Source of the DNA: Candidatus Magasanikbacteria bacterium RIFOXYD1_FULL_40_23 | GTDB taxonomy: Bacteria > Patescibacteriota > Patescibacteriia > Magasanikbacterales > GWA2-37-8 | DNA length: 64,000 nucleotides | Assembly (NCBI GenBank): GCA_001783215.1 | Contig: MFRA01000005.1 | Location: forward strand, 29,845-93,844 | Reading direction: 5' to 3' | Part shown: one piece after another, positions 8,604 to 54,372 of the stretch | Layout of the letters: each line of letters starts with the position of its first letter | How positions within the stretch are numbered: position 1 is the stretch's first letter | Position numbers and translations under genes: made by a program | Notes under the pieces: model-generated | Databases searched by the model: none | Seen by the model: the letters and a program-made list of their open reading frames with translations, nothing else | Told to the model about the DNA's origin: nothing

Positions 8604-8690
8604 ACAAAGTGAAGGAAACAAAAATTTATTTTTATTTCTGAGCGTGTATAGAAAATACCTTTAGTATTTTCATATTAAGCAAACTTTGGA

Positions 8691-17360: not shown

Positions 17361-17775
17361 CCCCACTTCTTTAGTAGAAGTGGGCAAGAATCGCTCACGG
17401 TGGAAAGGTTCAGGAAATTTAGGACTCATTTTCTTTAATTTTCAAAACTCAACAGCTTTTTATTCGCAAAAAGCTGTCTCAAACATTGAAAATTTCCTGC
17501 GAAGGAACACTCAAACTCATCTCTAAATTTTAACTTCACCTTTCCAAAGTTCGCCTGGACAATCGACGGACAACGATTCGCTATCCGAGCACATGGTGAG
17601 TGATGCTACTGGCCACGGTGAGGGGGGGGCGGTGCCTTTTTTAAGGCACAGGTAGTCATAGGGTAGTTTGCTGATTGACTGCCTGAGTAAACCCGAACCG
17701 ATTGGCAGTAGCAGAGCGAGACATCAGCTCGGAAACTTTTCCCTCCAGCTTTTGGTTTCAAAAGGTGGAAAATGG
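17361..17775 (+). ncRNA. copy 1 of an unclassified ~430-nt structured repeat/ncRNA candidate (appears 3'-truncated relative to copy 2)
   Basis: About 80% identical to 61940-62355 over conserved blocks. The stem in the 5' hairpin differs between copies in a compensatory way (CCCACUUC/GAAGUGGG here versus CGCUUUC/GAAAGCG in copy 2) with an identical UUUAGUA loop. There is no ORF. Confidence 0.5.
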
Positions 17776-21469: not shown

Positions 21470-21943
21470 TTAATCAAGTAGTGGTTTCTGGCGCATTACT
21501 AGCCACCCATACTCCTCGCCAAGCTTTGCATGTTCGTAGAATTGACGCATTGGTCTGGGCGCTAATCCCTGGTCAAATCCGAAGATATATGGTGTGTTTG
21601 TATGTTCTCGCTTAACCAAAACGATTATCGGGTGGTCAAGGTAGATTAGCCCCAAAGACAGAGCTATGAGATGGCACTGCTCAAAGGCAAATGCTCTGGC
21701 TAGATGTTCTTCATCTGGAGTCAGAAGCCTATAGCCAAGGCTTTGCAGCTTAAACGACGCTTCGCTTGGGGTGGTCTCGCTCTGGAAATGGTGTTCGTAT
21801 AGCTCCCATTCGGTGGCATGCAAAGGCACGTCTGGTCCAGGAATATTGAAAATAAGCCTTTGCGCCATAGGCTGGCGTGCACATCCTAGAGCCAGAAAGG
21901 CGAAAACGATGGTAGAAAGAGCAAGATTGATCCGGTGGCGCAT
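21470..21943 (-). CDS. hypothetical lipoprotein in a GC-rich islet; SD-led (GGAGGT)
   Basis: Lipobox FLALGCA. GGAGGTCCAAC ATG. GC content is elevated compared with the surrounding host DNA. Confidence 0.5.
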   Translation of the reverse strand: MRHRINLALSTIVFAFLALGCARQPMAQRLIFNIPGPDVPLHATEWELYEHHFQSETTPSEASFKLQSLGYRLLTPDEEHLARAFAFEQCHLIALSLGLIYLDHPIIVLVKREHTNTPYIFGFDQGLAPRPMRQFYEHAKLGEEYGWLVMRQKPLLD

Positions 21944-22389
21944 GTTGGACCTCCGTGTGTAGGGATTAAACAGCCTTTTTCAATTTCAAGCAAGTATATT
22001 GGCAATAGGGGGCTTCGCCGCATATATTCTCATTCACTCGGAAATAGTTTGGCAAACCAACTGTTTCACTCATTCACTTCGAATATTAAAAAAGGCGATC
22101 ACCCTCTAAATCAATTTGCATTGGTACAGAGGCGGATCGCCTTTACGTTGATACTACTAAGGGGAGGTACTTTCCCCTTTACGGGGAACATGTACTCTAC
22201 CTACCTTGGGTAGTATTAAAATTGACCTCAACCGCTTGTGGGTAGAGCCCTGGTGTCTTGACCCGAAGGTCTCGACTAATTAGGGTTGCCCGGGAAGAAG
22301 TTGGGCGTGCCATTGTTTCTCTGTTTTCTACAGATAACAGTTGCATACCCGCTTTCTCTTTTACAGTTTGAGAGTCATTATCTGCTTAG

Positions 22390-22640
22390 GAGCAGACTAG
22401 ATAAATTGTAGAATGAACTACATAAGTAAGTATACACTATTTTTAGTGTTTTGTCAACACGTTTGTATACACTAGTATACACAAATGCTTTTTTGGCTAA
22501 TCATAAACAAAATTATTATTTCTTATCCACATTGTAAGTGAGTTATACCCAGGCTTATCCACAGTTGTATAGACTTGTGTATACAAAAAAAGATTAGTTA
22601 TCCACTTTTCAGGTGTTTATAATTGACAAAATACAATTTT
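22390..22640. promoter_or_regulatory. dense secondary cluster of DnaA-box-like motifs (at least 7), 11 kb from dnaA
   Basis: TTATCCACA x2 (perfect), TTATCCACT, TTATACCCA, and TGTATACAC/TTGTATACA x3-4. Confidence 0.5.
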
Positions 22641-22682
22641 TCTTATAACAATACCTTACGCAAATCACAAAGAGGGGGATTT

Positions 22683-23216
22683 ATGGAAACTTGGAGTGTT
22701 TCCAGGGTGTTTGCTTCTACGCGAGTAGTTGGTTTGTTTCTTCCCGGACAAATATTTTCCGTAAAGGATAAGTTTGTTGTTGGGTGCGGTCCCAGTACAC
22801 CCATCAGGTTTAATTGGGTAGTTGACCGGTTCCTTTGGTACTTTGGTATGGTTCCTTATTTAGTAGAGCATGGAGTTGTGCTACTGGAATGCCATGTATT
22901 GGCGAAGGAGTTCACTAGCACCAAAGACATGTTCAAGGCTGTTGGTGGCCCAGGGGATCAAGATGCCTTTGTTACCGTTCCAGAGGTATATGCCCTGCTG
23001 TTGGGCCATGCTGAGGATAGAGAGAACTGCGCACTATCTAGTAATCATGGGAATATCTTTTTTCTTCAGGGAACGCACGAATCGTCTTGGATTTTGAATC
23101 TAACCTGGTGTGAGAACTCTGGCTGGATTGTTACCTTTTGTGAGAGCCTTATTCCTCACAATTGGCTAAAAAATCAGAGAGTCTTCTCTCGTCACAAGTT
23201 CAAGCCGGCAGTATGA
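22683..23216 (+). CDS. hypothetical protein in a GC-rich islet; SD-led (AGAGGGGGA)
   Basis: Start trimmed to the ATG that follows the strong SD (METWSVSRVF...). The track ORF begins at 22623. Confidence 0.45.
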   Translation: METWSVSRVFASTRVVGLFLPGQIFSVKDKFVVGCGPSTPIRFNWVVDRFLWYFGMVPYLVEHGVVLLECHVLAKEFTSTKDMFKAVGGPGDQDAFVTVPEVYALLLGHAEDRENCALSSNHGNIFFLQGTHESSWILNLTWCENSGWIVTFCESLIPHNWLKNQRVFSRHKFKPAV

Positions 23217-23290: not shown

Positions 23291-23298
23291 TAATTGAA

Positions 23299-23465
23299 AT
23301 ATAGGTAAACCATATTTACTCGCACGCTCGGAAAAGTACATAAATGTACTTTTCGCTCACTTTGCTTGTAAATGAATGAGGAAATAGTTGGTTTACCAAA
23401 CTATTTCCGAGTGAATGAAATTATATGTAAAACTATATAATTGTAATATAGGTAAACCATATTTC
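23299..23465 (+). promoter_or_regulatory. copy G of the ~85-nt leader element family; not fused to a real gene and flanked by 19-bp perfect direct repeats
   Basis: ATATAGGTAAACCATATTT is repeated at 23299-23317 and 23447-23465. Between them are Box1 ACTCGCACGCTCGG, an 11-bp perfect IR GAAAAGTACAT/ATGTACTTTTC, Box2-like GCTCACTTTGC, then ATG opening a 22-codon ORF that contains a 10-bp IR GGAAATAGTT/AACTATTTCC. Confidence 0.5.
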
Positions 23466-23535: not shown

Positions 23536-24969
23536 ATGCGCAATATTCCTTTGGCTCTTACCTACGACGATGTATTAATTATTCCAAAACGCTCATCGCT
23601 TACATCTCGCAGTGAAGCCAACACCAAAACTAGATTAACGAAAAAAATAAATTTAAATATTCCAATTGTTAGTGCCAATATGGACACTGTTTCTGAATCA
23701 GAAATGGCAATTGCTTTGGCGCGATTGGGTGGTATTTCTTTTATCCACCGGTTCATGAGTATAGAGGATAACGTAGAGGAAATAAAACGAGTAAAGCGCG
23801 CGCAAAACTTTATTGTGGCTGATCCATATACCATAGAAGCTAGTGCCACCATTGGTGAAGCCAAAAAGTTTATAGCCGCTCACGGAGTAAGTGGTTTGTT
23901 AGTAGCAGACAGTAACAAAAAATTAAAAGGCATTTTATCTAAAAGAGATTTTGTTTTTGTAAAAGATGACAGTCAGACAGTGGAGCAAACCATGACTCCG
24001 CGAGAAAAATTAGTAGTAGGAGATAGAAATACCAGCTTTGTTCAGGCCAAAGAAAAAATGATCCAAAATAAAATAGAGAAGCTGCCGTTGGTAGATGAAA
24101 ATGACAATATAGTTGGTTTAATTACTGCAGATGATATTAAAAATTTAATTGAATATCCTTTGGCCAATGTAGATTCTGATGGGCGATTGATAGTGGGTGG
24201 GTCGGTTGGTGTGCACGGAGATTATTTAGAAAGAGCTCAAGCTTTGGTAAAAGCCGGAGTTGATGTGTTAGTAGTAGACATTGCTCATGGTCATTCGGAA
24301 ATGATGTTTAATGCTATTAAAAAAATACGAGAAGTGTGCGGCGATGTGCAAATTATCGCAGGCAATATTGCTACTGCCGAGGCCGCCAGAGATTTGTGTG
24401 AAGCCGGAGTGGATGCACTAAAGGTGGGTGTAGGCCCCGGTACGATTTGTATCACCAGGCTAGTAACTGGTTGTGGTGTGCCGCAATTAACTGCGGTGTT
24501 GTCTGTAGCCGAAGTGGCCAAGCAGTATGGTGTGCCAGTAATTGCTGATGGTGGAATACAAAAATCCGGAGATATTGTAAAAGCCATTGGTGCGGGCGCA
24601 GACACAGTAATGTTGGGTGGGTTGCTTGCTGGTACCAAAGAAAGTCCGGGGCAAATAATGAACAGAGGTGATAAAAAATATAAGGTATGCCGTGGCAGTG
24701 CTAGCTTTGCCGTAGCTCAACGCAGGCAAGCGGTTAGCCAAGAAGGCAAAAATTTAAATGAAGTAGTGCCAGAAGGTGTAGAGTCGGTGGTGCTGTACAA
24801 AGGGCCGGTAGCAGAATTAATAGGGCAGTTGGTAGGCGGAGTTAAATCCGGAATGAGTTATACCAATTCACGAACTATTTCTGATTTGCAAAACAATGTT
24901 GATTTTATGCAGATAACTTCGGCTGGTGCGCGCGAGAGCGGAGCGCACGATTTGATAGATGTTAAATAA
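23536..24969 (+). CDS. guaB: IMP dehydrogenase (with CBS pair)
   Basis: LTYDDVLIIPKRS, catalytic loop GVGPGTICITRLVTGCGVPQ, and 477 aa length. Confidence 0.88.
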   Translation: MRNIPLALTYDDVLIIPKRSSLTSRSEANTKTRLTKKINLNIPIVSANMDTVSESEMAIALARLGGISFIHRFMSIEDNVEEIKRVKRAQNFIVADPYTIEASATIGEAKKFIAAHGVSGLLVADSNKKLKGILSKRDFVFVKDDSQTVEQTMTPREKLVVGDRNTSFVQAKEKMIQNKIEKLPLVDENDNIVGLITADDIKNLIEYPLANVDSDGRLIVGGSVGVHGDYLERAQALVKAGVDVLVVDIAHGHSEMMFNAIKKIREVCGDVQIIAGNIATAEAARDLCEAGVDALKVGVGPGTICITRLVTGCGVPQLTAVLSVAEVAKQYGVPVIADGGIQKSGDIVKAIGAGADTVMLGGLLAGTKESPGQIMNRGDKKYKVCRGSASFAVAQRRQAVSQEGKNLNEVVPEGVESVVLYKGPVAELIGQLVGGVKSGMSYTNSRTISDLQNNVDFMQITSAGARESGAHDLIDVK

Positions 24970-29039: not shown

Positions 29040-29127
29040 GGAAGGGTGGCCGAGCGGTTTAAGGCAACAGTCTTGAAAACTGTCGTATCGAAAGGTACCG
29101 TGGGTTCGAATCCCACCCCTTCCGCCA
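29040..29127 (+). tRNA. tRNA-Ser (anticodon UGA), class II with long variable arm; CCA encoded
   Basis: GGAAGGGTGGCCGAGCGGTTTAAGGCAACAGTCTTGAAAACTGTC...GGTTCGAATCCCACCCCTTCCGCCA. The anticodon loop CTTGAAA gives UGA. Confidence 0.85.
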
Positions 29128-29300
29128 AATGTAGAGGGATGAGAAGTTTATTTTCAAGTTGAGCGAGAGGAAAGAAAATTTATCTTCTTTCCCGAGCGAA
29201 TGAAGAAAATACCTTAGTATTCCCCATAGCGGGGCGACGGGGCAAATTCCACCCCTTTTCTCTAGCGGTGTTAATAGCAAAAAGCTAACCCGATAACTTT

Positions 29301-32562: not shown

Positions 32563-32594
32563 TTTAATTAAATTATAGGGGTTAAAGCCAACAT

Positions 32595-32930
32595 ATGAGG
32601 AACTTTTTTCGAGTAGCTGCAAGCTTGGTAGTTATCATGCTCATGATAAGCATAATCAATTGGGTGAGCGATGATTATATTTTGGCCGGTATTTATATCT
32701 TGATTATTTTGGCAGACATGGCAGTAAGGAAAAGAAAACACGATACAGTAGCTTTGGTGTTTGGATTTTTTGCAATGACAATGTTTGAATATCTATTTGT
32801 CACTACCGGCGTAGAAACTTTTACTCGCCAAAGTTTGCTAGGAGTAATGCCAATTTGGTTGCCGATTCTGTGGTCGTATGGATTTGTTTCTATAAAAAGA
32901 GCAGTAGAGATTATAGAGAAAGGTAAATAA
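32595..32930 (+). CDS. hypothetical small membrane protein
   Basis: 111 aa, three predicted TM helices. Confidence 0.35.
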   Translation: MRNFFRVAASLVVIMLMISIINWVSDDYILAGIYILIILADMAVRKRKHDTVALVFGFFAMTMFEYLFVTTGVETFTRQSLLGVMPIWLPILWSYGFVSIKRAVEIIEKGK

Positions 32931-32977
32931 AATTTTTAAATTAAAAAACGGAGCGTATAGCCCCGTTTTTTGTTTTG

Positions 32978-33364
32978 TTAAGATTTGTTTGCTTCCTGCG
33001 TATTTGCATAGTGTAGCATTCCATCTCGCATATATTCGGCCAGACCCACAGCCACATTTTCGTAGTTGGCTTTGAATCGCGGGTCGTCCACATACATTTT
33101 GGCCATGCCACGGTACATTTGTAAGTTTGGTTCATAAAATGCGCGCAGGCCGTCGTAGTGTCTGGTAATTAATTTTTGTACTTCTTCGCTTTTTGGAGCT
33201 AACCCATTTTTCATTGCGGCTGCAATTTCTTGGGTTAGCGCGCCAGCTTCTTCTAGTACTTTGGCCAGCCCAGCTTTGCCCATCTGTTTTACTCGTTCTT
33301 GGGATTGCTTAAAGGCCTCGGTATGGCCCCAGCGTTGTTTGGCTTCTTCGGTATATATTTCCAT
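32978..33364 (-). CDS. stand-alone TipAS-like antibiotic-recognition domain protein
   Basis: MEIYTEEAKQRWGHTEAFKQSQERVKQMGKAG... is a TipAS-like N-terminus. Leader element F immediately precedes it. Confidence 0.6.
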   Translation of the reverse strand: MEIYTEEAKQRWGHTEAFKQSQERVKQMGKAGLAKVLEEAGALTQEIAAAMKNGLAPKSEEVQKLITRHYDGLRAFYEPNLQMYRGMAKMYVDDPRFKANYENVAVGLAEYMRDGMLHYANTQEANKS

Positions 33365-33448
33365 ATTTGAAATGAGTGAAATAAGTAATCAAATGTTTTG
33401 GTTACTTATGAGCGAGTGAGAATATATGCGGCTTTAGCCCCTATCTCT
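33365..33448 (-). promoter_or_regulatory. leader element F (-10-like TATATT / Box1 CTCACTCGCTC / hairpin ATAAGTAA..TTACTTAT / Box2 CACTCATTTC / aaATG) in front of the TipAS gene
   Basis: Gene-sense reading: ATAGGGGCTAAAGCCGCATATATTCTCACTCGCTCATAAGTAACCAAAACATTTGATTACTTATTTCACTCATTTCAAATATG. Its distal part also encodes the last 12 codons of the MerR ORF. Confidence 0.6.
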
Positions 33449-33825
33449 TCTTTGGAGAAATTACCGTATAGTTCCTCGTCTTGCATAGTGGTTTCTTTGT
33501 TAATTTTTTTAATAGTCTTATCTATGGTGTTTATTAGTCCGTCTAGCCGGTTTCGCTTTAGTTGGATTAGGCCCCTTTGGTCATTTAGGGCTGTTTTCAT
33601 ATCAAAGCGAGGGGAGGATAAAATCCGCTTTATTTTCTCTATAGAAAAGTCTAATTCCCGGAAAAACAGGATTTGCTGTAATCTTAGCAATTCCGGTTCT
33701 TCATAGTGTCTATAGCCATTACCTTGTGTTCGGGCAGGGCTAAGCAGACCCACCTGATCATAGTAATGGAGGGTCCGGACGCTTACTTTGGCTAAATTGG
33801 CTAATTGTTGCACAGAATAAGACAT
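33406..33825 (-). CDS. MerR-family HTH transcriptional regulator with a coiled-coil linker but no effector domain (like the N-half of TipAL)
   Basis: MSYSVQQLANLAKVSVRTLHYYDQVGLLSPARTQGNGYRHY is a MerR HTH. Start trimmed from the track ORF 33406-33888. Confidence 0.65.
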   Translation of the reverse strand: MSYSVQQLANLAKVSVRTLHYYDQVGLLSPARTQGNGYRHYEEPELLRLQQILFFRELDFSIEKIKRILSSPRFDMKTALNDQRGLIQLKRNRLDGLINTIDKTIKKINKETTMQDEELYGNFSKEEIGAKAAYILTRS

Positions 33826-33889
33826 ATTGTAGATTTGAAATTGATAGGCGTCGACCCTGTATGTTGGCTTACATACACACCATACCACA

Positions 33890-33920
33890 AGTCTAAACTA
33901 TTACGCAACGTTAGAGTCAA
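33890..33920 (-). promoter_or_regulatory. MerR-type promoter with a 19-bp spacer (TTGACT-19-TAGACT) upstream of the merR-family gene
   Basis: On the minus strand: TTGACT at 33920-33915, a 19-nt spacer containing AACGTT, then TAGACT at 33895-33890. Confidence 0.4.
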
Positions 33921-33992
33921 GAGGGGGGGTGCTGATAGACAAAACCACGTCAGAATAGTATGATTTAAGGGGTAAATTAACTATAAAATTGT

Positions 33993-34409
33993 ATGTTGGA
34001 GTCCAAAACCGCTGGTGGAATAGTGTTAAACAAAGATGGGGTAATTTTGGTTGTAAACCAAAATGGTAATTCTTGGTCTTTTCCAAAGGGGCACATAGAA
34101 GAAGGGGAAGAAGTTTTGGTTGCAGCTAAACGAGAAATAGAAGAAGAAACCGGCATTACCCACTTAGAATATTTAGGGGAATTGGGAACCTATAGTAGAT
34201 ACAAAATAGGCAAAAATGTAGATGAAGAAGACAAATCAGAAATAAAATATATAACAATGTTTTTATTTCGTACCGACCAGATGAAATTACAGCCAATAGA
34301 TCCGGATAATCCAGAAGCTAGATGGGTCGCCAGAGAAGAGGTTGTAAATTTGCTAACACACAAAAAAGATAAAGAGTTTTGGCTGAGTGTAAAAGATAAA
34401 CTTGATTAG
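33993..34409 (+). CDS. Nudix hydrolase
   Basis: Nudix box GHIEEGEEVLVAAKREIEEETG. Confidence 0.8.
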   Translation: MLESKTAGGIVLNKDGVILVVNQNGNSWSFPKGHIEEGEEVLVAAKREIEEETGITHLEYLGELGTYSRYKIGKNVDEEDKSEIKYITMFLFRTDQMKLQPIDPDNPEARWVAREEVVNLLTHKKDKEFWLSVKDKLD

Positions 34410-41441: not shown

Positions 41442-41490
41442 TGTAGATAAAATTTAGAATGGTAGAATTATTATTAATTATAAAAATGTA

Positions 41491-41572
41491 TATAGGGGCT
41501 AAAGCCACATATATACTCATTCGCTCGTAAATAATAAAACAAGTTTGATTATTTAACTCACTCATTTCGTAT
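41491..41572 (+). promoter_or_regulatory. leader element A (TATATA / Box1 ACTCATTCGCTCG / hairpin / Box2 ACTCACTCATTTCG / tatATG) in front of the LUD-domain gene
   Basis: TATAGGGGCTAAAGCCACATATATACTCATTCGCTCGTAAATAATAAAACAAGTTTGATTATTTAACTCACTCATTTCGTATATG. Confidence 0.6.
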
Positions 41573-42190
41573 ATGCAATATAATGAATTAGCAACTAAAG
41601 AGGCCTTACAACAAACTATAGAAGCGCTTGGTAAAAAAAATATAGAAGCGTTTGCAGTAGAGAGTGGCGCAGACGCACTAGCAAAAGTAAAAGAATTGGT
41701 TCCGGCTGGTGCATCGATAATGAATGGCGCTTCTCGTACGCTAGAGCAAATTGGTTTTGTGGAACATCTAAAATCCGGCACTCATGGTTGGAACAATCTT
41801 CACGAAGGAATTTTGGCCGAAACAGATCCAGCCAAACAAGCAATGCTGCGCAAACAAGCAGTATTGTCGGATTATTATGTAGCTAGCGTGCATGCGGTAG
41901 CCCAAACCGGCGAATTACTTATTGCTTCTAACACAGGTAGTCAATTACCTCATATTGTTTTTACTTCTCCTAATGTTATTTTTGTCGTGGGAGCACAAAA
42001 GATTATGCCAACCCTAGCCGACGCTCTTAGTCGTTTGGAAGAATATGTAAAGCCGCTCGAAGACAAACGTGCGCAAGAGGCATATGGTTCCGGCACGGCC
42101 GACAATAAAATTGTAATCTTTAAAGGCGAAAATCCAATGATGGGCAGAAAAGTGAAAGTTATTTTTGTGAATGAAAAGCTTGGGTTTTAA
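41573..42190 (+). CDS. LUD-domain (lactate-utilisation LutB/C-like, YkgG family) protein
   Basis: 205 aa. The ASRTLEQIG ... VVGAQKI pattern is compatible with DUF162/LUD. Confidence 0.45.
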   Translation: MQYNELATKEALQQTIEALGKKNIEAFAVESGADALAKVKELVPAGASIMNGASRTLEQIGFVEHLKSGTHGWNNLHEGILAETDPAKQAMLRKQAVLSDYYVASVHAVAQTGELLIASNTGSQLPHIVFTSPNVIFVVGAQKIMPTLADALSRLEEYVKPLEDKRAQEAYGSGTADNKIVIFKGENPMMGRKVKVIFVNEKLGF

Positions 42191-42271
42191 GTATAAGGGC
42201 TTTGTCGTATACATACTCATTCGTTCGTATAAAGTTAAATATTTTTAACTTTATACTCACTCATTTCGAAT
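42191..42271 (+). promoter_or_regulatory. leader element B in front of the DUF45 metallohydrolase gene
   Basis: GTATAAGGGCTTTGTCGTATACATACTCATTCGTTCGTATAAAGTTAAATATTTTTAACTTTATACTCACTCATTTCGAATATG, with a perfect palindromic spacer AAGTTAAATATTTTTAACTT. Confidence 0.6.
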
Positions 42272-42841
42272 ATGCAAAACAGGATAGAGTTGGGTAAAAG
42301 AATTATAAATTATACTCTTCGTATAAGCAGGCGAGCTAGACATCTACGATTGGCTGTCTATAATGGCGGTGATTTTATCGTCACCGCCCCTCGGCACTTG
42401 AGCTTGCCCGCCATAGAGCGGTTTATTATTCGTAAATCCAAATGGGTGCTAGAAAAAATAGATAAACTGATTTCTCTGCCCAAGCCAGTAAAAATAAAAA
42501 GTTCCAGGATTGATTATATAAAATACAAAGCGGTAGCCAGAAAAATTGCCAGAGACAAGATGGGATACTTTAATAAGTTTTATGGGCATAGCTGGAAGAA
42601 TATTTCTATAAAAAATACAAAGACTCGCTGGGGTAGCTGTTCCAAGAAGGGGAATATTAACTTTAATTACAAAATAGCGCTTCTGCCTGAAAAGTTGGTG
42701 GATTATATAATCGTGCACGAGCTGTGCCATTTGGCGCAGTTTAACCACTCGCGAAAGTTTTGGAGTTTGGTAGCCCAAGCAGTCCCCGACCATAAACAGA
42801 TTAGAACAGAGCTTCGCAAGATTGGGCTAACTGCAGGCTAA
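42272..42841 (+). CDS. YgjP/DUF45-family zinc metallohydrolase (WLM-like HExxH)
   Basis: IIVHELCHLAQFNHS. Confidence 0.65.
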   Translation: MQNRIELGKRIINYTLRISRRARHLRLAVYNGGDFIVTAPRHLSLPAIERFIIRKSKWVLEKIDKLISLPKPVKIKSSRIDYIKYKAVARKIARDKMGYFNKFYGHSWKNISIKNTKTRWGSCSKKGNINFNYKIALLPEKLVDYIIVHELCHLAQFNHSRKFWSLVAQAVPDHKQIRTELRKIGLTAG

Positions 42842-44273: not shown

Positions 44274-44660
44274 TTAATTGAAATTTATATTAAAACTAAA
44301 CATTCCCATAGAGCACATTCCGCGAATGCTGGTGCCGGCCTTTTGCGCGGGCACATCTACCAAAGTCTCTCCGGAAGGTGGTAAATTTTTTCTATAATTT
44401 AGTGCTGGGATTACGAGAGATGAAGAGCAATCGAAAGTTCCTCTGGTATCTATCTTTATTACCGTGGGCATATCGGCTTTGGCATTGGTAATTCGTGGAG
44501 TATATCCACCCTTGGCGTTTATAGTTATAATCTGTTTGCCGTCTTTGATTTTTATATTATTGGCGCTAGGACCGGTATCTTTTTCTCCGCCAGAAAATAG
44601 TATAGCGCCGGTAATTACGGCAGCCACGAAGATAAAAATGGCAATAAAAGTTTTTTTCAT
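44274..44660 (-). CDS. secreted cupredoxin-like (PF13473-like) protein, copper-island member
   Basis: Signal/TM, then IKIKDGKQIITINAKGG...IRGMCSMGMFSFNINF. Leader element C precedes it. Confidence 0.3.
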   Translation of the reverse strand: MKKTFIAIFIFVAAVITGAILFSGGEKDTGPSANNIKIKDGKQIITINAKGGYTPRITNAKADMPTVIKIDTRGTFDCSSSLVIPALNYRKNLPPSGETLVDVPAQKAGTSIRGMCSMGMFSFNINFN

Positions 44661-44750
44661 ATGCGAAGTGAGTGAGTAAAATATTTAGCTTACTAAAGTA
44701 TTTTCGAACGAACGAGTATGTATGTGGCTTCAGCCCCTATATTAAAAATT
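44661..44750 (-). promoter_or_regulatory. leader element C in front of the cupredoxin-like gene
   Basis: Gene-sense: AATATAGGGGCTGAAGCCACATACATACTCGTTCGTTCGAAAATACTTTAGTAAGCTAAATATTTTACTCACTCACTTCGCATATG. Confidence 0.6.
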
Positions 44751-45761
44751 AAATAATGGTGGAATGAGGCCAAATCCCACCAAGCTATTTATTAAATTAA
44801 AAATACCAAAAAATATTACTACTAAGCCGGCAGTTTTGAAAAATATTCCAGACTGCGCTTTTTTGTGGATGCCAAGCGAGCTAAAGCTGAGCAGTGCCAA
44901 AACTGGCAAAGTGCCCAAAGCAAAAGTAAACATTATGAATGCGCCAGTCCAGAAGTTGCCGGTAGTAAGTGTATAAATTTGCATTGATTGAGTAAACCCA
45001 CAAGGCAAGAAAAATGTAGCCACACCCACCAGCATCGGTGTAAGAGTGTGGTTTATATTTTTTAGACTATGTACGCGCTTGCCAATAAAAGTAGGCATTG
45101 CCGGTTGAAGTTTTTTTACCCAAGGAAAAATATCCAAAAGATTAATACCTAGAATTAAAAGCACAGATGCTACTAGCAGGTTGAGTATAAATGTGCCGGC
45201 GATACCTAGTTGAAAAGTAGAGCCAAGCGCGCCCACCACCCCGCCTAGAATAAAAAATGAAGCCAAGCGGCCCACATGAAAAAGTATTTGTGGTTTGGTT
45301 TTGTCTCCTTCTTTGGCAAAGTTGGCTGACATAGACAACACTAGTCCGCCCACTATAGCCATACAGGTAGAAACAGAAGCGATTAAGCCTATTACAAAAG
45401 CTGTGCCATAACTAACTTCGGAAGCGGTAACTAGGTTTACGATCCCCATTTTTTGTAGGGCAATAAATACAACTATAAATCCAGCCGCAATTGGTATAGC
45501 TTTATAAAAATCAGACCAGTTAATTATTTTGGTTTCTTTTTCTAAAGATAAAGTATATCCGTGCGGTTGTAGAGTCGTAGATAGTTCTGCAGCGATTTGT
45601 TCATTTGTTTTTTCGCCAAATTCTCCGGTAACCTCTACGCTTAAATCTGGTAAGCAAGCCTTTACTTGTTTAACTTGAGGCAAATCGCCTAGCTCGCTTT
45701 CTGTAAGCACTACGCACGAGTTGCAGTGCATACCGTTTACATGAAATTTATATGTTTGCAT
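44742..45761 (-). CDS. N-terminal heavy-metal-associated (HMA) domain fused to a DsbD_2/CcdA-like polytopic membrane domain
   Basis: GMHCNSC (HMA). Membrane Cys pair VSTCMAIVGG / FFLPCGFT. Confidence 0.55.
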   Translation of the reverse strand: MQTYKFHVNGMHCNSCVVLTESELGDLPQVKQVKACLPDLSVEVTGEFGEKTNEQIAAELSTTLQPHGYTLSLEKETKIINWSDFYKAIPIAAGFIVVFIALQKMGIVNLVTASEVSYGTAFVIGLIASVSTCMAIVGGLVLSMSANFAKEGDKTKPQILFHVGRLASFFILGGVVGALGSTFQLGIAGTFILNLLVASVLLILGINLLDIFPWVKKLQPAMPTFIGKRVHSLKNINHTLTPMLVGVATFFLPCGFTQSMQIYTLTTGNFWTGAFIMFTFALGTLPVLALLSFSSLGIHKKAQSGIFFKTAGLVVIFFGIFNLINSLVGFGLIPPLFNF

Positions 45762-45768
45762 ATTGTTT

Positions 45769-45840
45769 TGTCATCCTGAACGGAGTGAAGGATCCCTTAC
45801 ACCCAAATGAGAGGGATTCTTCGCTTTGCTCAGAATGACA
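45769..45840. repeat. inverted pair of GTCATYCTGA...GGATC units (family R) between copA and the HMA-DsbD_2 gene
   Basis: TGTCATCCTGAACGGAGTGAAGGATCCCT ... GAGGGATTCTTCGCTTTGCTCAGAATGACA. Confidence 0.6.
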
Positions 45841-45907
45841 GTTAAAGTTAATTTTTAAATCGATTTATCTACTACATAGTGTAGTAGCAATAATTATGTT
45901 TGTCAAC

Positions 45908-48241
45908 CTAAAGTTTTTTAGTTTTAATTCGTAAAGAATTTCCTACTACTGATACACTAGATAAAGCCATAGCTAATCCGGCAAAAATAGGGTTGAGCAA
46001 CCAGCCAAACAGTGGGTAGAATACTCCAGCGGCCAGTGGTATGCCAACTATATTGTATATAAACGCCCAGAAAAGATTTTGTTTTATTCCGCGCATTGTC
46101 ATTTTGGAAAGTTTGATTGCTTTGACTAGTTTGGATATATCTCCGCCAAGCAGAGTGATGCCGGCAGATTCTATGGCCACATCTGTGCCTGTGCCCATGG
46201 CAATGCCTACGTCGGCTTGAGCCAGTGCTGGCGCATCGTTTACTCCATCTCCGGCCATAGCTACCACTTTGCCTTGTGTTTGTAGCTCTTTTATTTTTAT
46301 CAGTTTGTCTTGTGGCAAAACATGTGCCATTACATCATCAATATCAACTAGAGAGGCAATATAGTTGGCGGCTCTTTGGTCATCACCTGTAACCATTACC
46401 ACTTTAATTCCTAATTTATGAAGATCATTTACTGCTTGTTTTGATTCTGCTTTTATTTCATCAGCCACCATTACAAATCCGAGCACTTTTTCTTTGGTAG
46501 CCAAAATTACCGGAGTTTTTCCTTGGGCAGTAAATTGTTCAATTTTTGTAGAATCAAAAGTTATGCCAAGATCTTGGATAAGTTTTGTGTTGCCGGCAAA
46601 ATATTGTATTTCGTCTACCAAACCTGTAACCCCCTTGCCTTGAAGTCCTTCAAAATCGTGAACATCTTTGGTGTCAATATTTTTTTCTGTTGTGTAATTT
46701 ACAATTGCGTGCGCAATTGGGTGTTCTGATTTTTTTTCGAGTGATGCCAGAATAGAAACAAGCTCGGCATCTTTTAGGTCTGATAAATTTTGAATATCAA
46801 CCAACGTTGGTTTGCCGATAGTAATTGTGCCGGTTTTATCTACAACTACAGTGTTTACTTTGTGAAGCTTTTCCAAGGTAGCCGCATCTTTTATTAAAAT
46901 TCCAGCGCGCGCGCCTTTGCCTACTCCAACTATAATAGCGGTCGGTGTAGCCAGTCCAAGTGCACAAGGGCAAGCGATAACAAGTACGCCGACAAAAGAT
47001 ACTAAACCGTATGATAATGCTTGAGAAAATCCAAGTGGGCCAGTACCAAATATAAGCCAAGCACCCAAGGATAAGACAGAAATAACAAGAACTATAGGAA
47101 CAAAGACGCTAGATATTTTGTCGGCCAGAGCTTGAATAGGTGCTTTGCTTCCTTGCGCATCTTCTACCATTTTTATTATTTGAGCTAGTAGAGTTTCGGA
47201 TCCTACTTTGGTAGCTTTAAAAGTAAATGACCCGCTTGTATTTATAGTGCCCGACACTACATTGTCGCCAACTTTTTTTTGCGCAGGCATTGGCTCGCCT
47301 GTTACCATTGATTCGTCTACAAAAGAAGCGCCTTCGGTAATAGTGCCATCTACCGGGATTTTTGTACCCGGTTTTACAATAATTAAATCACCGTGTTTTA
47401 CATTGTTTACGGGTACTTCTATTTCTTTACCGTCGCGAATAACCAAAGCTGTTTTGGCCTGCAAGTTAAGAAGTTTTTCTATTGCATCTCCGGTTTTTAT
47501 TTTTGATTTTGCTTCCAAATATTTACCAAAAGCTATAAATGCTATAACTATGATAGTCACATCATAATAAGTATTCTCAACATTTATATAAGGGCTTAAT
47601 CCTTTTTCGAAAGCAGTTACAGCAAAACTATATAAAAAAGCTACTGAAGTGCCAATACCAATCAAAGTGTCCATGTTGGCTTTGCCATAGCGTAAGAACC
47701 TATAAAATCCCAAGAGGTACGGCTTTCCTACTACAAATAACATGTAAGTAGCAATCAGAGGTAGTAAGTGATGAAAAAATTCCATTAGCGTTTCGTTGGG
47801 TGCGGCAATATATTTTAGTTCGGAAAAAATATCCCAACTCATGATAAAAGCGCTTAGTATGGTTAGCGGTATAGAAATTAAAACCATAGTTTGCATGTTG
47901 GCTATTTCGGCTAGCTTTTCTTTTTTTGATTGGTTCAATCCCAAGTGGGCAGCGTGCTCATCTGCAGACATTCCCATTTCTTCGGCTGACATGTCTTTAT
48001 GTTTGATTGGCATGCTCATTTCTTCATTTTCAGGTATAGAAAGCGTATATCCGAGGTGTTCTATTTTTTTGGAAAGATCGTGGGCGCTAGTTTTATTTTC
48101 ATCAAAAGAAATTTTGGTTGTTTCGGTACCATAGTTTACTTCGGCCGAGTGTACTCCTTCGGTTTTTTTGAAAGTTTTTTCTATAATGCCGGCGCAAGAG
48201 GCGCAATGCATTCCTTTTACCCGATAGGTCTGGCTTTGCAT
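45908..48241 (-). CDS. copA: copper-translocating P1B-type ATPase
   Basis: [17 protein letters not shown] motif [11 protein letters not shown], phosphorylation site DKTGTIT, and [10 protein letters not shown]. Confidence 0.92.
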
Positions 48242-48248
48242 ATATTTT

Positions 48249-48515
48249 TTATTTACGTTTTAATTTATACACCTTAAGAATTTCTTGTTTGGCTTTGTCG
48301 GTTTGGCCGGATTTTATTTGGTTTATAATACAACCACCCAAGTGGTTTTCTAAGAGTAAATCTTCTACATTTGAGAGGGCTTGTTTAGCTGCTGAGGTTT
48401 GAGTAATTACATCTATACAGTAAATATCGCCCGCAACCATTTTTTGCAGGCCACGAATTTGACCTTCTATTAGTTTAAGGCGGCGCATTATTTTGGGTTT
48501 ATTTTTATTATGCAT
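48249..48515 (-). CDS. csoR: CsoR/RcnR-family copper-sensing repressor
   Basis: 88 aa. [13 protein letters not shown], then Cys ... H-x3-C (DIYCID...ENHLGGC) matching the CsoR Cu(I) ligand spacing. Confidence 0.8.
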
Positions 48516-48538
48516 ATATTTTTATAATATACCATATG

Positions 48539-48555
48539 ATACCCTATGGGGGTAT
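48539..48555. promoter_or_regulatory. CsoR-type operator ATACCCTATGGGGGTAT overlapping the csoR-copA promoter
   Basis: GC-rich pseudo-palindrome TACCC-N5-GGGTA, 24-40 nt upstream of the csoR ATG. Resembles characterised CsoR operators. Confidence 0.6.
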
Positions 48556-48570
48556 TGTTAACAAGTCTTT

Positions 48571-48612
48571 ATAATAGGATGAGATTATTTATAAATAATC
48601 TCATCCTATTAT
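48571..48612. repeat. 42-bp perfect palindrome (ATAATAGGATGAGATTATTTA | TAAATAATCTCATCCTATTAT)
   Basis: Every position pairs with its partner. Sits between the Met-rich gene 3' end and the csoR promoter. Confidence 0.8.
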
Positions 48613-48630
48613 CGTATTTCGTAAAAATTA

Positions 48631-48969
48631 TTATTTACTCATCATATTTTTCATTGTCCCGCTGCTTTCTGATGCTTTTATATTTTCTTTCATATATTTT
48701 TCTCCCATCATTTCCATATCTTTTCCTTTGGAAACAGCCCCATCATTTTTTAATTCCATTCCCATTTCTTGCATCATTGAGCCGCCTGTTTTCATCATAG
48801 TAGCCATTGTTTGAATAGAGGCTGATTGTTCTTTCATCATGGCAATTGAATCCTGCAGCTCTTTGGTTTGAGCGCTATTATTATTTATATTTTTTCCAGA
48901 TGAATAACCAATGCCTCCGCCAACAGCGAGGGCAATAATTATTCCGATGGTGAATGTTGTAGTTTTCAT
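48631..48969 (-). CDS. Met-rich secreted protein (putative periplasmic Cu(I)-binding, MxM/MMxxM motifs)
   Basis: Signal peptide, then MMKEQSASIQTMATMMKTGGSMMQEMGME...MEMMGEKYM...MKNMMSK. Confidence 0.45.
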   Translation of the reverse strand: MKTTTFTIGIIIALAVGGGIGYSSGKNINNNSAQTKELQDSIAMMKEQSASIQTMATMMKTGGSMMQEMGMELKNDGAVSKGKDMEMMGEKYMKENIKASESSGTMKNMMSK

Positions 48970-49043
48970 ATGTGAAATGAGTGAATATAAAGTTAAATGT
49001 TTTTAACTTTATATGAGCGAATAAGTATATACCTTAGTATATT
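48970..49043 (-). promoter_or_regulatory. leader element D in front of the Met-rich protein gene
   Basis: Gene-sense: AGGTATATACTTATTCGCTCATATAAAGTTAAAAACATTTAACTTTATATTCACTCATTTCACATATG. Confidence 0.55.
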
Positions 49044-49056
49044 TAAGATAAGTTAA

Positions 49057-49278
49057 TTAAATAATTTTTCCTTGCTTTTCAAGCATCATATGATGAATCG
49101 TGCTGACTGCAAGCCAAATAGCGATTAGGATAAGAATGCCAGAGCAAAGCAGGGCATCTATTTTTGTAATTCCAAAAACGAGATTATCGCCTCCGCCAAG
49201 AATTGCCGTTGTAAATGTTATGATTCCGGTAGTTCCTACTACGACACTTGCAACGTGCATTAATTTTGATAGTTTCAT
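49057..49278 (-). CDS. small two-TM membrane protein, hypothetical
   Basis: 73 aa, downstream of the RND pump gene. Confidence 0.35.
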   Translation of the reverse strand: MKLSKLMHVASVVVGTTGIITFTTAILGGGDNLVFGITKIDALLCSGILILIAIWLAVSTIHHMMLEKQGKII

Positions 49279-49374
49279 ATGTGTGAATATATGTATTAAA
49301 TATTTAACTTCCGATTGTTGAGTGTAATTATATTACATATTTTATGGATTAATTAGTAAGTTTGAATCTTGTTA

Positions 49375-52300
49375 TTAAAACCCGGATGCCCCTGTTTCTT
49401 TATTTTGATTTTGCAATGCAGTTTTTTTGCCGAAACGATAGAATAATGCAGGTGTTAAGAATAAAGAAATGATAGTAGAAGAAATAAGTCCCCCAAATAT
49501 TACAACTGCCAATGGGTTAAGCATTTCTTTGCCCGGTTCTCCACCGGAAATGATAAGTGGGATAAGCGCAAGTGCAGCTACAAGCGATGTCATAAGTACT
49601 GGCACTACACGATCGAGGGTGGCTTTTACGATTGTTTCTGGCTCAAATGGTAATCCTTCTTTTTGTACTAGTGCTAAACTGCGTCCAATTAGCATGATTC
49701 CATTTCTAGAAACAATTCCAGCAAGTGAAATAAAACCAACCAAGTGCGCTAGACTTACGGATCCGCCGGTTAGCCAGACGCCAATCATTCCGCCTATTAA
49801 CACTGTGGGGATATTGGTCATTACCAAAAGTACAATTGGAATTGATCTAAAAGCATGGTACAACACGCCAAATATCATAATCATCCCGATAATAAACACT
49901 AGTGCCAGTCGCTGGGAATTTTCTTTTTGGCTTTTATAATTACCTTCAAAAGAAAGAGTTATTCCGGTAGGTAGTTTTTGGGACTCAAGTGCAGTTTTGG
50001 CTCTGCCAACAGCCCCAACCACATCTGTGCCCTGATAATTGGCAGAAACTACTAATACTCGTTTTCCTCCTTCATGGTTTTGGCTATTGCGGCCGCCTTC
50101 AACCAGAATATCTCCTACGCTTCCCAACGACGGCGCACCCATAAAAGGAAGCGATAAATCCCGTAATGATGCCATTGTGCCTTTTGATTCCGCGTCATAG
50201 CGTGCGATAACATCAACCGAAGCGGGGCCTAGACGGACTTGTCCTAAATTATCTCCCATAATTCCCATTGCCAAATCATTGGCAACTTCGCCGGGAGATA
50301 ATGCATATTCGGCTAAACGATTTCTATCAACATAAATACGAAATTCCGGTACAATGGTATTTTGCTGAATGCGTGGATTATCAATCCCCGGTTGTTTTTG
50401 CAGTTCGGCTAATACTTGTTTGGCCGCATGTTCCATATTTTCCGGATCATCACCAAATATTTTTACTACAATCGGCGATCGTACGCCCGATAGTAGCATT
50501 TCAACACGGTGTGTAATTGGCTGCCCCAAACTAAAGTCTGCGCCGCCAAACCGGTCAAGCACCGCTTGAATATCCTCGAGAATTTGATCGCGCTCACCCT
50601 CAAATTCTGGTTTAAGTGCAATCTGAACTTCGCTTGAATTTGCACTGCCTCCATGAGGGTCAGCCGATGCTCGTCCAGCAATATTACTTACTTGGCGCAC
50701 TCCTTCTACTTGCAGAATAGCCTTTTCAAGCTTGGCCATATAATCATTCGTTGTAGAAAGCGCCGTACCTGGCGGTAAGAAAACCATAGCCACCATTGAT
50801 CCTTCGTTAAATGGCGGAATTCCCTCTTTACCGGCAAAGAAATACATGCCTACGGTAAGAAAAAGCGCAACAATTGTAACACCAGTAATGATTTTTACAT
50901 TAATGATGCACCAGTTAATCCAAGGCGTTATATACTCCTTAATTTTTTGTACAACTTTAGTCTCCTTTTCATGCTTGGCTAGTGACTTGTCATTTAGCAG
51001 TAGTGCGGACAAAACCGGTGTTACTGTAAGTGATATTGCCATGGATGCAAAAAGAGATACAAGATAGGCAGAACCAAGAGCTATAAGCAAACGCCCTTCA
51101 ATTCCTGGCATAAAGAATATGGGTAAAAATACTACCGCGACAAGTATTGTTGCATATACGATTGAATTACGAACTTCTTGTGAAGCCAGTAAAACAACAT
51201 GTTCGCGATTTTCTTTTTTACCACCCAGCATCCACAAACGTAGACGACGAAAAATATTTTCCACATCAACAATTGCATCATCAACAAGTTCTCCCACTGC
51301 CACCGCGATACCGCCCAAGGTCATCACATTTACCGAAAGATCAAAAGCTTTAAATATGATAGCTGTGGCTAAAATAGATAGAGGAATTGCTGTTAGCGTA
51401 ATCATCGTCATTCTCATATTCATTAGAAATATAATGAGAACTAAAATGACAAGGACAGTACCGTCTAGAAGTGCTCGCTCTACATTGCTTAATCCGGCGC
51501 GAATGAAATTTTCTTGGCGGAAAAGATCTGGATGAAGCTCTACTCCGTTAGGAAGACTGGCCGAAAGGGAGTTGAATGTTTTATTGATTGCATCCGTAAC
51601 AGCAAGAGTTTGCGCATCTGGCTGGCGAATGATGCGTAAAATGACACCCTCTTTACCATCAATTGCTCCGCTGCCGCGAATAATACTCGCTCCTTCCACA
51701 ACCGATGCAATATCACCAAGTCGAAGTGGGCGTCCATCCATAATATTGCGTCCGATAGAAATATCTTCCAATTGCGAAGCTTCAGTTGGTGCGGTAAGAA
51801 TACGGATTACATATTCTTTTTCGTTCTCAGTAAGAAGACCACCGCTTTTATTCGTCAAAGTGTTTTCCACACTTTTGCGAACATCATCAATCATGATTCC
51901 ATAACGACGCATGCGTTCGGCATTAATATTTATCTGCCACTCACGCACATCACCGCCCATGACAAACACATTTGCGACTCCTGGCATTTTGAGCAGCGCG
52001 GGACGAATGGTCCAATCTGCAAGCGTTCGTAGTTCCATCGGAGTAATTTTTGCATCGGATGCTGTTATTCCAATCCAGGCGATTTCGCCCAAAAGAGATG
52101 TTGCCGGACCAAGAGTTGGCCTTACACCAAATGGCAACACTGCTTGTGTTAAACGTTCTTGCACTACTTGTCTGTTTCGCAATGTATCGCTCCCCCAAGC
52201 AAACTCCATATTAACGGTGGCTTGCGCGAATGAAGCGCTGCTTCGTATGCGATCAACTCCTGGCGCGCCCGCAACTGCCGCTTCTATTGGATTAAGAATG

Positions 52301-52491
52301 AGCCGCTCCACTTCTTCGGCCGCCATGCCTGGACTTTCCGCAAAGATGGTAACGGTTGGTTTATTTATATCTGGAAGAATATCCACTTTCATTGTGGCCA
52401 CGCTCCATAGACCTGTTATCGTCATAATTCCGGCCAGAACAAGTACGGTAATTTTATTTCCTAGAGCCCAAGATATTATCTTGTTAAACAT
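49375..52491 (-). CDS. cusA: HME-family RND efflux permease (CusA/CzcA-like)
   Basis: 1038 aa, 12-TM RND architecture. N-terminus MFNKIISWALGNKITVLVLAGIMTITGLWSVATMKVDILPDINKPTV. Confidence 0.85.
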   Translation of the reverse strand: MFNKIISWALGNKITVLVLAGIMTITGLWSVATMKVDILPDINKPTVTIFAESPGMAAEEVERLILNPIEAAVAGAPGVDRIRSSASFAQATVNMEFAWGSDTLRNRQVVQERLTQAVLPFGVRPTLGPATSLLGEIAWIGITASDAKITPMELRTLADWTIRPALLKMPGVANVFVMGGDVREWQININAERMRRYGIMIDDVRKSVENTLTNKSGGLLTENEKEYVIRILTAPTEASQLEDISIGRNIMDGRPLRLGDIASVVEGASIIRGSGAIDGKEGVILRIIRQPDAQTLAVTDAINKTFNSLSASLPNGVELHPDLFRQENFIRAGLSNVERALLDGTVLVILVLIIFLMNMRMTMITLTAIPLSILATAIIFKAFDLSVNVMTLGGIAVAVGELVDDAIVDVENIFRRLRLWMLGGKKENREHVVLLASQEVRNSIVYATILVAVVFLPIFFMPGIEGRLLIALGSAYLVSLFASMAISLTVTPVLSALLLNDKSLAKHEKETKVVQKIKEYITPWINWCIINVKIITGVTIVALFLTVGMYFFAGKEGIPPFNEGSMVAMVFLPPGTALSTTNDYMAKLEKAILQVEGVRQVSNIAGRASADPHGGSANSSEVQIALKPEFEGERDQILEDIQAVLDRFGGADFSLGQPITHRVEMLLSGVRSPIVVKIFGDDPENMEHAAKQVLAELQKQPGIDNPRIQQNTIVPEFRIYVDRNRLAEYALSPGEVANDLAMGIMGDNLGQVRLGPASVDVIARYDAESKGTMASLRDLSLPFMGAPSLGSVGDILVEGGRNSQNHEGGKRVLVVSANYQGTDVVGAVGRAKTALESQKLPTGITLSFEGNYKSQKENSQRLALVFIIGMIMIFGVLYHAFRSIPIVLLVMTNIPTVLIGGMIGVWLTGGSVSLAHLVGFISLAGIVSRNGIMLIGRSLALVQKEGLPFEPETIVKATLDRVVPVLMTSLVAALALIPLIISGGEPGKEMLNPLAVVIFGGLISSTIISLFLTPALFYRFGKKTALQNQNKETGASGF

Positions 52492-52501
52492 ATAACTTTA
52501 A

Positions 52502-54259: not shown

Positions 54260-54372
54260 AATCGAAGTGAGTGAATTAAATAATGTAGGAGAAAATAATG
54301 AGCTTGCTCAATTATTTTCGAGTGGATTATTTATGAGCGAATGAGATTATATGGGCCTTAGCCTCTATAAAT
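54260..54372 (-). promoter_or_regulatory. leader element E (perfect TATAAT / Box1 CTCATTCGCTC / long hairpin / Box2 CACTCACTTCG / attATG) in front of cusBA
   Basis: Gene-sense: TATAGAGGCTAAGGCCCATATAATCTCATTCGCTCATAAATAATCCACTCGAAAATAATTGAGCAAGCTCATTATTTTCTCCTACATTATTTAATTCACTCACTTCGATTATG. Confidence 0.6.

Follow-up and report, generated by a model that had tools for sequence, protein, structure and literature searches.

A gene for a TipA-class MerR regulator has been cut in two by the insertion of an 80-bp repeat element in Candidatus Magasanikbacteria bacterium RIFOXYD1_FULL_40_23. The locus lies in a stretch of 64,000 nucleotides of contig MFRA01000005.1 (GCA_001783215.1), hereafter called the window. 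An ancestral single gene of ~255 amino acids (aa) is represented there by two intact open reading frames (ORFs), one for the DNA-binding half and one for the TipAS effector half, and this split is fixed in a natural population. The element landed in the α6–α7 linker of the protein, immediately 5′ of an in-frame Met codon. We regard the full account given below, comprising the 80-bp insertion and the proposed working of the two cistrons, as likely.

A first-pass annotation of the window had described a MerR helix–turn–helix (HTH)/coiled-coil ORF next to a stand-alone TipAS ORF, and Pfam matches on both ORFs bear this description out. The MerR-half ORF (33406–33825, minus strand; 139 aa, starting MSYSVQQLANLAK) matches MerR_1 (6e-18), MerR (4e-12) and MerR-DNA-bind, the last across residues 48–108, and comprises the MerR HTH and coiled coil. 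Its native part (33445–33825, minus strand) spans codons 1–127, encoding the HTH, the coiled coil and the start of the linker (α6 region), and shares 85% aa identity with the fused protein P0001. The remaining 12 codons (IGAKAAYILTRS) and the TAA stop (33408–33406) are encoded by the element (33406–33444, minus strand), giving a C terminus that reads ...NFSKEE-IGAKAAYILTRS* and has no counterpart in the intact ortholog. It had been proposed that a repeat between the ORFs supplies these last 12 codons; indeed, 33444–33406 lies within a copy that a covariance model of the repeat family matches at 33362–33448 (75.9 bits, E = 1.8e-11).

The TipAS ORF (32978–33364, minus strand; 128 aa, starting MEIYTEEAKQRWGHTEAF) stands alone and covers the Pfam TipAS profile from 1 to 117 of 117 (4e-37), a complete domain. 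Its ATG (33362–33364, minus strand) is at once the last three bases of the element and the ancestral in-frame Met codon. Between the MerR stop and this ATG lie 41 nt, and the stop-to-ATG offset is 44 nt, so the two frames differ. The earlier description of a TipAS start at the element's ATG, in another frame and with a 44-nt offset, is thus accurate, except that the ATG was not brought by the element alone: the Met codon was there before. Within the first 39 nt of the element each of the three frames meets a stop codon, and so only 12 residues from the element are added before the upstream half terminates.

Removing the element in silico (33365–33444, minus strand) restores an open frame of 254/255 aa. 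We searched the rebuilt protein against 5.8 billion sequences. The best 120 homologs are single fused proteins of ~250–255 aa with both the MerR and the TipAS Pfam domains, save one truncated entry, and the top homologs are 85%, 84% and 82% identical across 98–100% of the query. At the junction, the fused proteins in the alignment read ELYGNFSKEEMDKYTEEAKQRWG / ELYGNFSKEEMDKYTEEAKQRWGHT and the window reads ...KEE[element]MEIYTEE...; the TipAS ATG aligns with the Met of ...KEEMDKYTEE... (...NFSKEEMDKYTEE...) in the closest fused homologs. The contig of the best homolog (GCA_964734585.1, here L001) matches the window in gene order (HhH-GPD, NUDIX, tipAL, VIT1, MIP) and carries an intact tipAL of 255 aa. 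Aligned as DNA (88% identity), the window and L001 differ within the gene by a single indel, a clean 80-bp gap in L001 directly 5′ of the pre-existing Met codon. The insertion alignment, AAAGAAGAG[ATAGGGG...TTTCAAAT]ATGG, has a boundary that can be shifted by 2 bp (AT), and the net insert of 80 bp accordingly carries a 2-bp AT ambiguity at its junctions.

Since the fused state is found in 120 outgroups, the difference reflects an insertion in the window lineage and not a deletion or fusion elsewhere. The first-pass annotation had offered insertion into an ancestral tipAL-like gene as one possibility, and the fused homologs together with an ortholog that lacks exactly these 80 bp settle the matter in its favour. 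The other possibility it offered, a leader of its own for TipAS, describes a consequence of the insertion and not an alternative to it. Relatives with the same two genes and no element, or with a conserved MerR tail, would speak for a different history; neither was seen among the loci compared, and the element-encoded tail is confined to this lineage.

The split allele recurs beyond the window. An identical TipAS protein is encoded on 18 contigs, and the five of these that we compared show the same layout (MerR of 139 aa, TipAS of 128 aa) and are 100% identical to the window over 1,021 bases. Each has its own sample of origin: two are from JGI metagenomes, one is from a Logan run and two are from ENA assemblies, of which one carries the label groundwater. 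The source is uncultured and repeats can mislead assemblers, so a repeat misjoined into the gene during assembly or binning had to be considered; a split allele that is base-identical across the junction in separate samples and collections, with collinear flanks, makes such an artefact wholly improbable.

To place the break in the protein, we aligned the rebuilt sequence with TipA-class proteins. It aligns over its full length with the solved structures 3QAO and SkgA (7CLA). Residues 1–108 of the MerR half align with residues 1–108 of MtaN, and this half also aligns with TipAN. Rebuilt residues 116–246 align with TipAS chain residues 10–138 of 2MBZ and 1NY9, and the stand-alone TipAS ORF aligns with the same chains from residue ~22 onward. 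The break at 127/128 corresponds to about TipAL residue 130/131, inside the α6–α7 region and at the N-terminal edge of the Pfam TipAS domain. Met114 (M114), invariant in the homologs, lies near the chain start of Streptomyces lividans TipAS in the pairwise alignment. The suggestion that the junction might match the TipAL linker therefore holds in so far as the break falls within the α6–α7 linker; it is not at the TipAS start, lying ~13 codons downstream of M114. One relative (L129) has a stand-alone TipAS gene of 140 aa (2761–3183; 76% identical) that starts exactly at the M114 equivalent, with neither a MerR half nor an element upstream.

The α6–α7 region is described as autoinhibitory in TipA-class regulators (Jiang et al. 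2020, PMC7762955). TipAN and MtaN, which lack the TipAS domain, are reported there to be constitutively active, and such fragments to be dimeric and to bind DNA more tightly; TipA constructs that retain α6–α7 bind DNA about as weakly as the full-length protein, and S. lividans TipAS is the product of an alternative start (PMC7762955). Like S. lividans tipA and the class at large (Mta, SkgA, Lmo0526), the locus described here has the same domains and the same type of promoter with a 19-bp spacer. By analogy with the TipAL/TipAS pair (PMC7762955), its outcome would be a regulator and a separately made TipAS domain. The means are different: S. lividans tipA uses two in-frame starts in one ORF, whereas here two ORFs in different frames are separated by an element, and no full-length ligand-responsive form is possible. 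Unlike TipA, the 128-aa TipAS half has no cysteine, which excludes TipA-style covalent thiopeptide capture. The MerR half resembles the engineered fragments TipAN and MtaN in spanning all of MtaN residues 1–108; it is longer than these, keeping α6 to about TipAL residue 130 and adding 12 foreign residues, and a comparable activity is suggested by analogy. With the HTH and the TipAS domain on separate polypeptides, the locus lacks the defining one-polypeptide feature of the class and is for this reason a split derivative of the TipA class and not a standard member.

The inserted element belongs to a family of structured repeats. In the tipA copy (all on the minus strand), hairpin P1 (33444–33423) is followed by a conserved box, CTCACTCGCTC (33420–33410), hairpin P2 (33409–33381) and, at the 3′ end, a CU-rich tail, TTCACTCATTTCAAAT (33380–33365). 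The unit ATAGGGGCTAAAGCC...CACTCATTTCAAATATG (33444–33362) recurs in the window and always ends at or beside an ATG. A pattern scan across one genome per species returned 110 stretches, from which an nhmmer profile and then a covariance model kept 74–81 true copies (n = 74 for alignment, n = 81 for counts of context). Pattern matches in Psychrobacter, Rufibacter and similar genomes were not recognized by the covariance model. Nearly all of the copies lie in metagenome-assembled genomes (MAGs) titled Candidatus Magasanikbacteria/Magasanikiibacteriota, ‘Patescibacteria group’, Parcubacteria or Portnoybacteria, with implausible labels on some third-party MAGs. The family consensus is TATA(T/G)GGGC-loop-GCCCATATAxxCTCATTCGCTCGG-[AT-rich hairpin]-CTCACTCATTTCGx'x'TATG.

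Pair counts across the aligned copies support P1 and P2: positions in the two helices are 88% paired, both sides change in 19 of 22 pairs, and the covariation score is 0.41, against ≤0.10 with slid partners, in an alignment that was fitted to the model and hence leans towards structure. A third helix lay outside the covariance model. In it, U-A-U-A-x-x-C, the stretch that follows P1 immediately on its 3′ side, forms pairs with G-x'-x'-U-A-U-G, a segment containing the start codon. This anti-start helix is 92.5% paired in the model-fitted alignment, and its two variable pairs occur as UA 41 and AU 28 and as UA 31 and AU 25. Its score of 0.265 is reached by none of 500 shuffles, slid controls stay at ≤0.116, and a plain MAFFT alignment gives the same result (0.232). 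The third helix and the P1 3′ arm use the same AUAU, so that the two pairings are mutually exclusive. Full-length copies are predicted to fold into P1 and P2 with the AUG free, the 3′ tail and AUG of the tipA copy being unpaired, and copies without the P1 5′ arm are predicted to form the helix that sequesters the AUG. RNAalifold, run on a MAFFT alignment of 50 copies, returned no pairs, as the gaps in P2 were inconsistently placed; the covariance-model alignment and the pair counts supersede this result.

The position of the copies is also regular. In about 70 of the 81, the last bases of the copy are the ATG of an ORF with 50 codons or more. A co-directional ORF precedes 63 of the 81, ending –200 to +45 nt from the element start, and ~40 of these 63 upstream ORFs end within 25 nt of it. 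Copies thus usually occupy the gap between co-directional genes, and several upstream ORFs besides MerR terminate within the element. Upstream ORFs running into the element at L090, L043 and L041 were considered as further gene splits and proved to be ordinary neighbouring genes. Two marks of a structured cis-regulatory leader are therefore present, namely covarying secondary structure and a fixed position and orientation 5′ of coding sequences. Among 18 called genes of L001, a Shine–Dalgarno-like tetramer lies upstream of two, and 15 have T at –1 (TATG), which points to a lineage-specific start context common to the 3′ end of the element and to the genes of L001. The 3′ end of 16S rRNA, sought for pairing with the CU-rich boxes (CUCACUCAUUUCG, CUCAUUCGCUC), is absent from all loci compared. 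Taken together, these features favour reading the element as an RNA leader, intercistronic or 5′, that serves initiation independent of a Shine–Dalgarno sequence, with a built-in arrangement of competing helices.

As far as we searched, the family is undescribed. At Rfam gathering thresholds, two tRNAs alone pass in the whole window, and permissive scans over three sub-regions yielded no family, those of the copies giving chance-level matches. A literature search on leaders and motifs of Patescibacteria, and on the literal motif strings, returned nothing relevant. Likenesses to integron attC sites, to extracytoplasmic function (ECF) sigma promoters and to T7-like promoters were considered and rejected because spacing or conserved bases do not fit.

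The 19-bp-spacer MerR-type promoter that had been noted upstream of the merR part is present at 33890–33920 (minus strand), with TTGACT (33920–33915), a 19-nt spacer and TAGACT (33895–33890), and its core is kept in four relatives. The spacer holds a predicted pseudo-palindromic operator, TAACGTTGCGTAA. A block, CTTGAC(C/T)CTAACGTTGCGTAATAG, is kept upstream of the fused tipAL genes in L001, L003, L005 and L006; in L003 and L005 the –10 box, TATAGT, is a better one, and in L006 the palindrome, TGACGTTACGTCA, is perfect. A separate box, GGTCGAC(G/A)CC, lies in the 5′ untranslated region of tipAL, ~20–35 nt before the ATG, in all five loci compared (window 33826–33860, minus strand; L001, L003, L005 and L006). 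No terminator-like hairpin with a T run was seen by eye between the two cistrons, and co-transcription from the MerR promoter is for that reason the simplest reading. The first such hairpin (32936–32976, no strand assigned), with T runs on both sides, follows TipAS and is common to the TipAS gene on the minus strand and a 111-aa ORF on the plus strand. It is a member of repeat family D2 (terminator-like hairpins) and is kept in L001. A consensus terminator scan of 32800–34100 listed none, a scan that also missed the hairpin at 32936–32976.

We propose the following working for the split locus. Both cistrons would be carried on one transcript from the conserved 19-bp-spacer MerR promoter. Ribosomes would end translation of the MerR half (MerR-N) at the foot of hairpin P2, and TipAS would initiate independently at the element leader, to be made as a free ligand-binding protein. 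MerR-N, consisting of HTH, coiled coil, α6 and 12 foreign residues, would dimerize and bind the operator without the steric block of α7 and TipAS. Having lost α7 and the rest of the effector domain, it may act more or less constitutively, by analogy with TipAN and MtaN. Ligand control of transcription would probably be lost, unless the halves re-associate.

The main rival is recent pseudogenization, according to which the insertion simply broke tipAL and left two intact ORFs that have no selected function and still await decay. TipA-class regulators are accessory genes, and a distant relative, L133, has a decayed C-terminal half. We looked for disabling changes in either half and found none. 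Between the window and L001, the ratio of non-synonymous to synonymous substitution rates (dN/dS) is 0.14 for the MerR half and 0.11 for the TipAS half. Polarized with eight outgroups, lineage-specific replacements number 2 in the split lineage and 7 in the intact L001 lineage for the MerR half, and 4 and 11 for the TipAS half; with fewer replacements in the split lineage, constraint shows no relaxation. Because none of the sampled copies of the split allele differs from the others, selection after the split is not separately measurable, which leaves pseudogenization room. Against it also stand the position of the insert, exactly before an in-frame ATG with the entire Pfam TipAS domain kept, the occurrence of the allele in at least five samples, and the fact that stand-alone TipAS genes and N-terminal fragments are known functional forms. 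On balance we judge pseudogenization unlikely. Far more remote is the idea that full-length TipAL is still made, with the ribosome bypassing the 80 nt or the RNA losing them. ATA codons stand at a would-be take-off site (GAG ATA GGG) and landing site (GAA ATA TAT), loosely like the hop in phage T4 gene 60. Yet the same element lies between unrelated genes at dozens of sites, where bypass would be meaningless; the 80-nt insert has stops in three frames and none directly after the take-off codon, and no intron family is resembled in Rfam. We consider this reading very improbable.

A promoter inside the element, with CATATAxx as its –10 box, would free the transcription of TipAS from the MerR promoter. 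Among the copies, the sequence of the P1 3′ arm is TATATT, TATATA, TATAAA or TATAAT, and 18 of the 81 have no co-directional ORF upstream. One of the copies in the window (22001–22087, plus strand) lies after a divergent gene, and its TATATT is preceded by TTGGCA at a distance of 18 nt. These features are outweighed by others: there is no conserved –35 box, the sequence upstream of the element is variable, a sigma-70 consensus scan finds no promoter inside the element, and most copies fill the whole gap between co-directional genes. Moreover, the last base of the would-be –10 box is A in 38 copies and T in 33 and covaries with the base beside the start codon, a pattern that an RNA helix explains and a promoter does not. 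An internal promoter is in our view improbable. The notion that the element gave TipAS its own regulated promoter and leader accordingly survives for the leader, which also precedes ~70 other ORFs, and finds no support for the promoter.

Several points weigh against the account that we favour, in which the insertion yielded two working cistrons. Co-transcription, translation of TipAS and activity of MerR-N are inferred. MerR-N retains about two-thirds of α6–α7 (to about TipAL residue 130), and full de-repression is not certain. Given the identity of the sampled split alleles, the low dN/dS may largely pre-date the insertion. Finally, the insertion junctions share the 2-bp AT alone, and the nearest sampled copy is just 81% identical.

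Presence and absence of the element vary between close relatives. Three sites differ between the window and L001: tipA, the gap between the DsbD_2 and cupredoxin genes, and a site after VIT1. In the DsbD_2–cupredoxin gap, the window has a copy (44658–44744, minus strand) that fills the space between the DsbD_2/HMA ORF and the cupredoxin ORF, and the orthologous site in L001 has TTTTTAACTTGTATG alone; filled and empty states differ there by a further 4 bp. A remnant consisting of P1 only (TATAGGGGTTAAAGCCAACATATG; 32574–32597, plus strand) supplies the CATATG that starts the 111-aa ORF (32595–32930), which adjoins the TipAS gene. At the site of this remnant L001 has a full copy (10911–11002, minus strand), followed by a different, lysine-rich ORF of 21 aa (MAKGNNAQNKNIKKPKKDKKK). 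The VIT1–tipA interval is a hot spot of change. Distant tipAL relatives (L003–L007, L123–L136 and L158; ~190 kb) have no copies of the element.

The covariance model finds 11 copies in the window, 10 besides the tipA copy, or roughly one per 6 kb. No other sampled copy exceeds 81% identity to the one at tipA. Members of the family in the window resemble one another no more than they resemble those of other genomes, and the low similarity within a genome (only ~80%) gives no evidence of a recent burst or a nearby donor. Tandem units occur at L038 (4073–4268), L101 (2215–2377), L029 (2793–2938) and L091 (5702–5858), where the 3′ end of the first unit, ...TTTCGxxTAT(A), doubles as the P1 5′ arm of the next. 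The AT junctions and the tandem arrays fit insertion at AT|G or microhomology-mediated copying beside an ATG. A TA target duplication of the Tc1/IS630 type was rejected: the empty site should then read GAGATATGG, and L001 reads GAGATGG. The insert termini, ATAGGGGC... and ...TTTCAAAT, do not form an inverted repeat; the inverted repeats of the element, namely P1, P2 and the anti-start helix, lie inside it. The family thus shares with miniature inverted-repeat transposable elements the many dispersed copies and the polymorphism of presence and absence, and lacks their terminal inverted repeats.

Other small repeats offer partial parallels. Rickettsia palindromic elements (RPEs) are small palindromic repeats that insert into coding genes in frame and are translated within the host protein. 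The present element is likewise a short, structured, multi-copy repeat inside a coding sequence; unlike RPEs, it is 80 nt long, not a multiple of three, has stops in all frames and ends in a start context, and it therefore splits the gene. ERIC/IRU elements of enterobacteria, Correia elements of Neisseria and REP/BIME are transcribed intergenic repeats that alter the expression of their neighbours. As with these, there are dozens of copies per genome, located between co-directional genes, with hairpins and with variable presence at a site. In contrast to them, the element has neither terminal inverted repeats nor a TA target duplication, its 3′ end is tied to the start codon of the ORF that follows, and this codon takes part in a covarying helix. 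With translational riboswitches and RNA thermometers it has in common a covarying structure immediately before ORFs and a choice between two incompatible pairings, of which one is predicted to occlude the AUG; it differs from these in its very high copy number, in the unrelated genes downstream and in the lack of an Rfam match.

Among the other copies in the window, the top-scoring one (41488–41575, plus strand; 89.9 bits) lies before a LUD-domain ORF (41573–42190, Pfam) and is 81% identical to the tipA copy. A second (42189–42274, plus strand) fills the entire gap between this LUD-domain ORF and a YgjP-like ORF (42272–42841). Three genes in a probable cluster for copper or metal handling (44274–54372, minus strand) also have copies in front of them; they encode a cupredoxin (44274–44660), a Met-rich, secreted-looking protein of 112 aa (48631–48969) and an HlyD-like protein of 585 aa (52502–54259). 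The copy before the HlyD-like gene has an internal insertion of ~30 nt. Beside the cluster lie the gene for an HMA/DsbD_2 protein and a 777-aa ORF that may match the HMA/E1–E2 ATPase of L001.

The copy at 22001–22087 ends in ATATT, not ATATG, and is followed by ~540 nt (to 22622) without a convincing ORF. A permissive Rfam scan of the region 22001–22622 gave no match, and the flanking ORFs (21470–21943, minus strand, and 22623–23216, plus strand) look richer in G+C by eye. Two weak copies overlap in opposite orientation (23295–23374, plus strand, and 23365–23442, minus strand) upstream of a 477-aa ORF (23536–24969) whose sequence resembles IMPDH by eye, and the pair is bracketed by a 29-nt direct repeat at 23289 and 23436. 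Two divergent members, at 29149–29228 (40 bits) and 8601–8671 (25 bits), both on the minus strand, have a different 5′ hairpin, AATACTAAGGTATT. The former lies just downstream of, and antisense to, tRNA-Ser (29040–29127), and the latter precedes a YidD-like ORF. Separate from the element family, a non-coding direct repeat of ~390 nt occurs at 17383–17772 and 61962–62332, with 83–92% identity in three collinear blocks. It has no convincing ORF and no Rfam match and could be a duplicated non-coding RNA or regulatory region.

It is possible, and we put it forward tentatively, that the element family is a portable ‘stop-and-restart’ cassette, an RNA of ~85 nt that spreads to sites directly 5′ of ATG codons. 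In such a cassette, P1 and the start-codon region would compete for the AUAU strand, and initiation, possibly regulated, would be supplied without a Shine–Dalgarno sequence. If so, landing before an internal Met at a domain boundary would create a new cistron, and the family would represent a general mechanism of gene fission and operon remodelling in the reduced genomes of Patescibacteria.

The tipA locus is a case of gene fission in which the states before and after are both at hand and the agent is identified; it shows how one gene can become two, with a new start site, through a small repeat. It also offers a TipA-class multidrug regulator whose DNA-binding and effector halves have come apart in nature, and structural work predicts that such a separation lifts autoinhibition. 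More broadly, the analysis exposes an abundant structured element in Patescibacteria, in which translation initiation is poorly understood: Shine–Dalgarno sites are rare, and the clade studied here has no isolates. Should the element prove to be a switchable initiation cassette, it would help to explain how polycistronic expression is organized and regulated in these reduced genomes.

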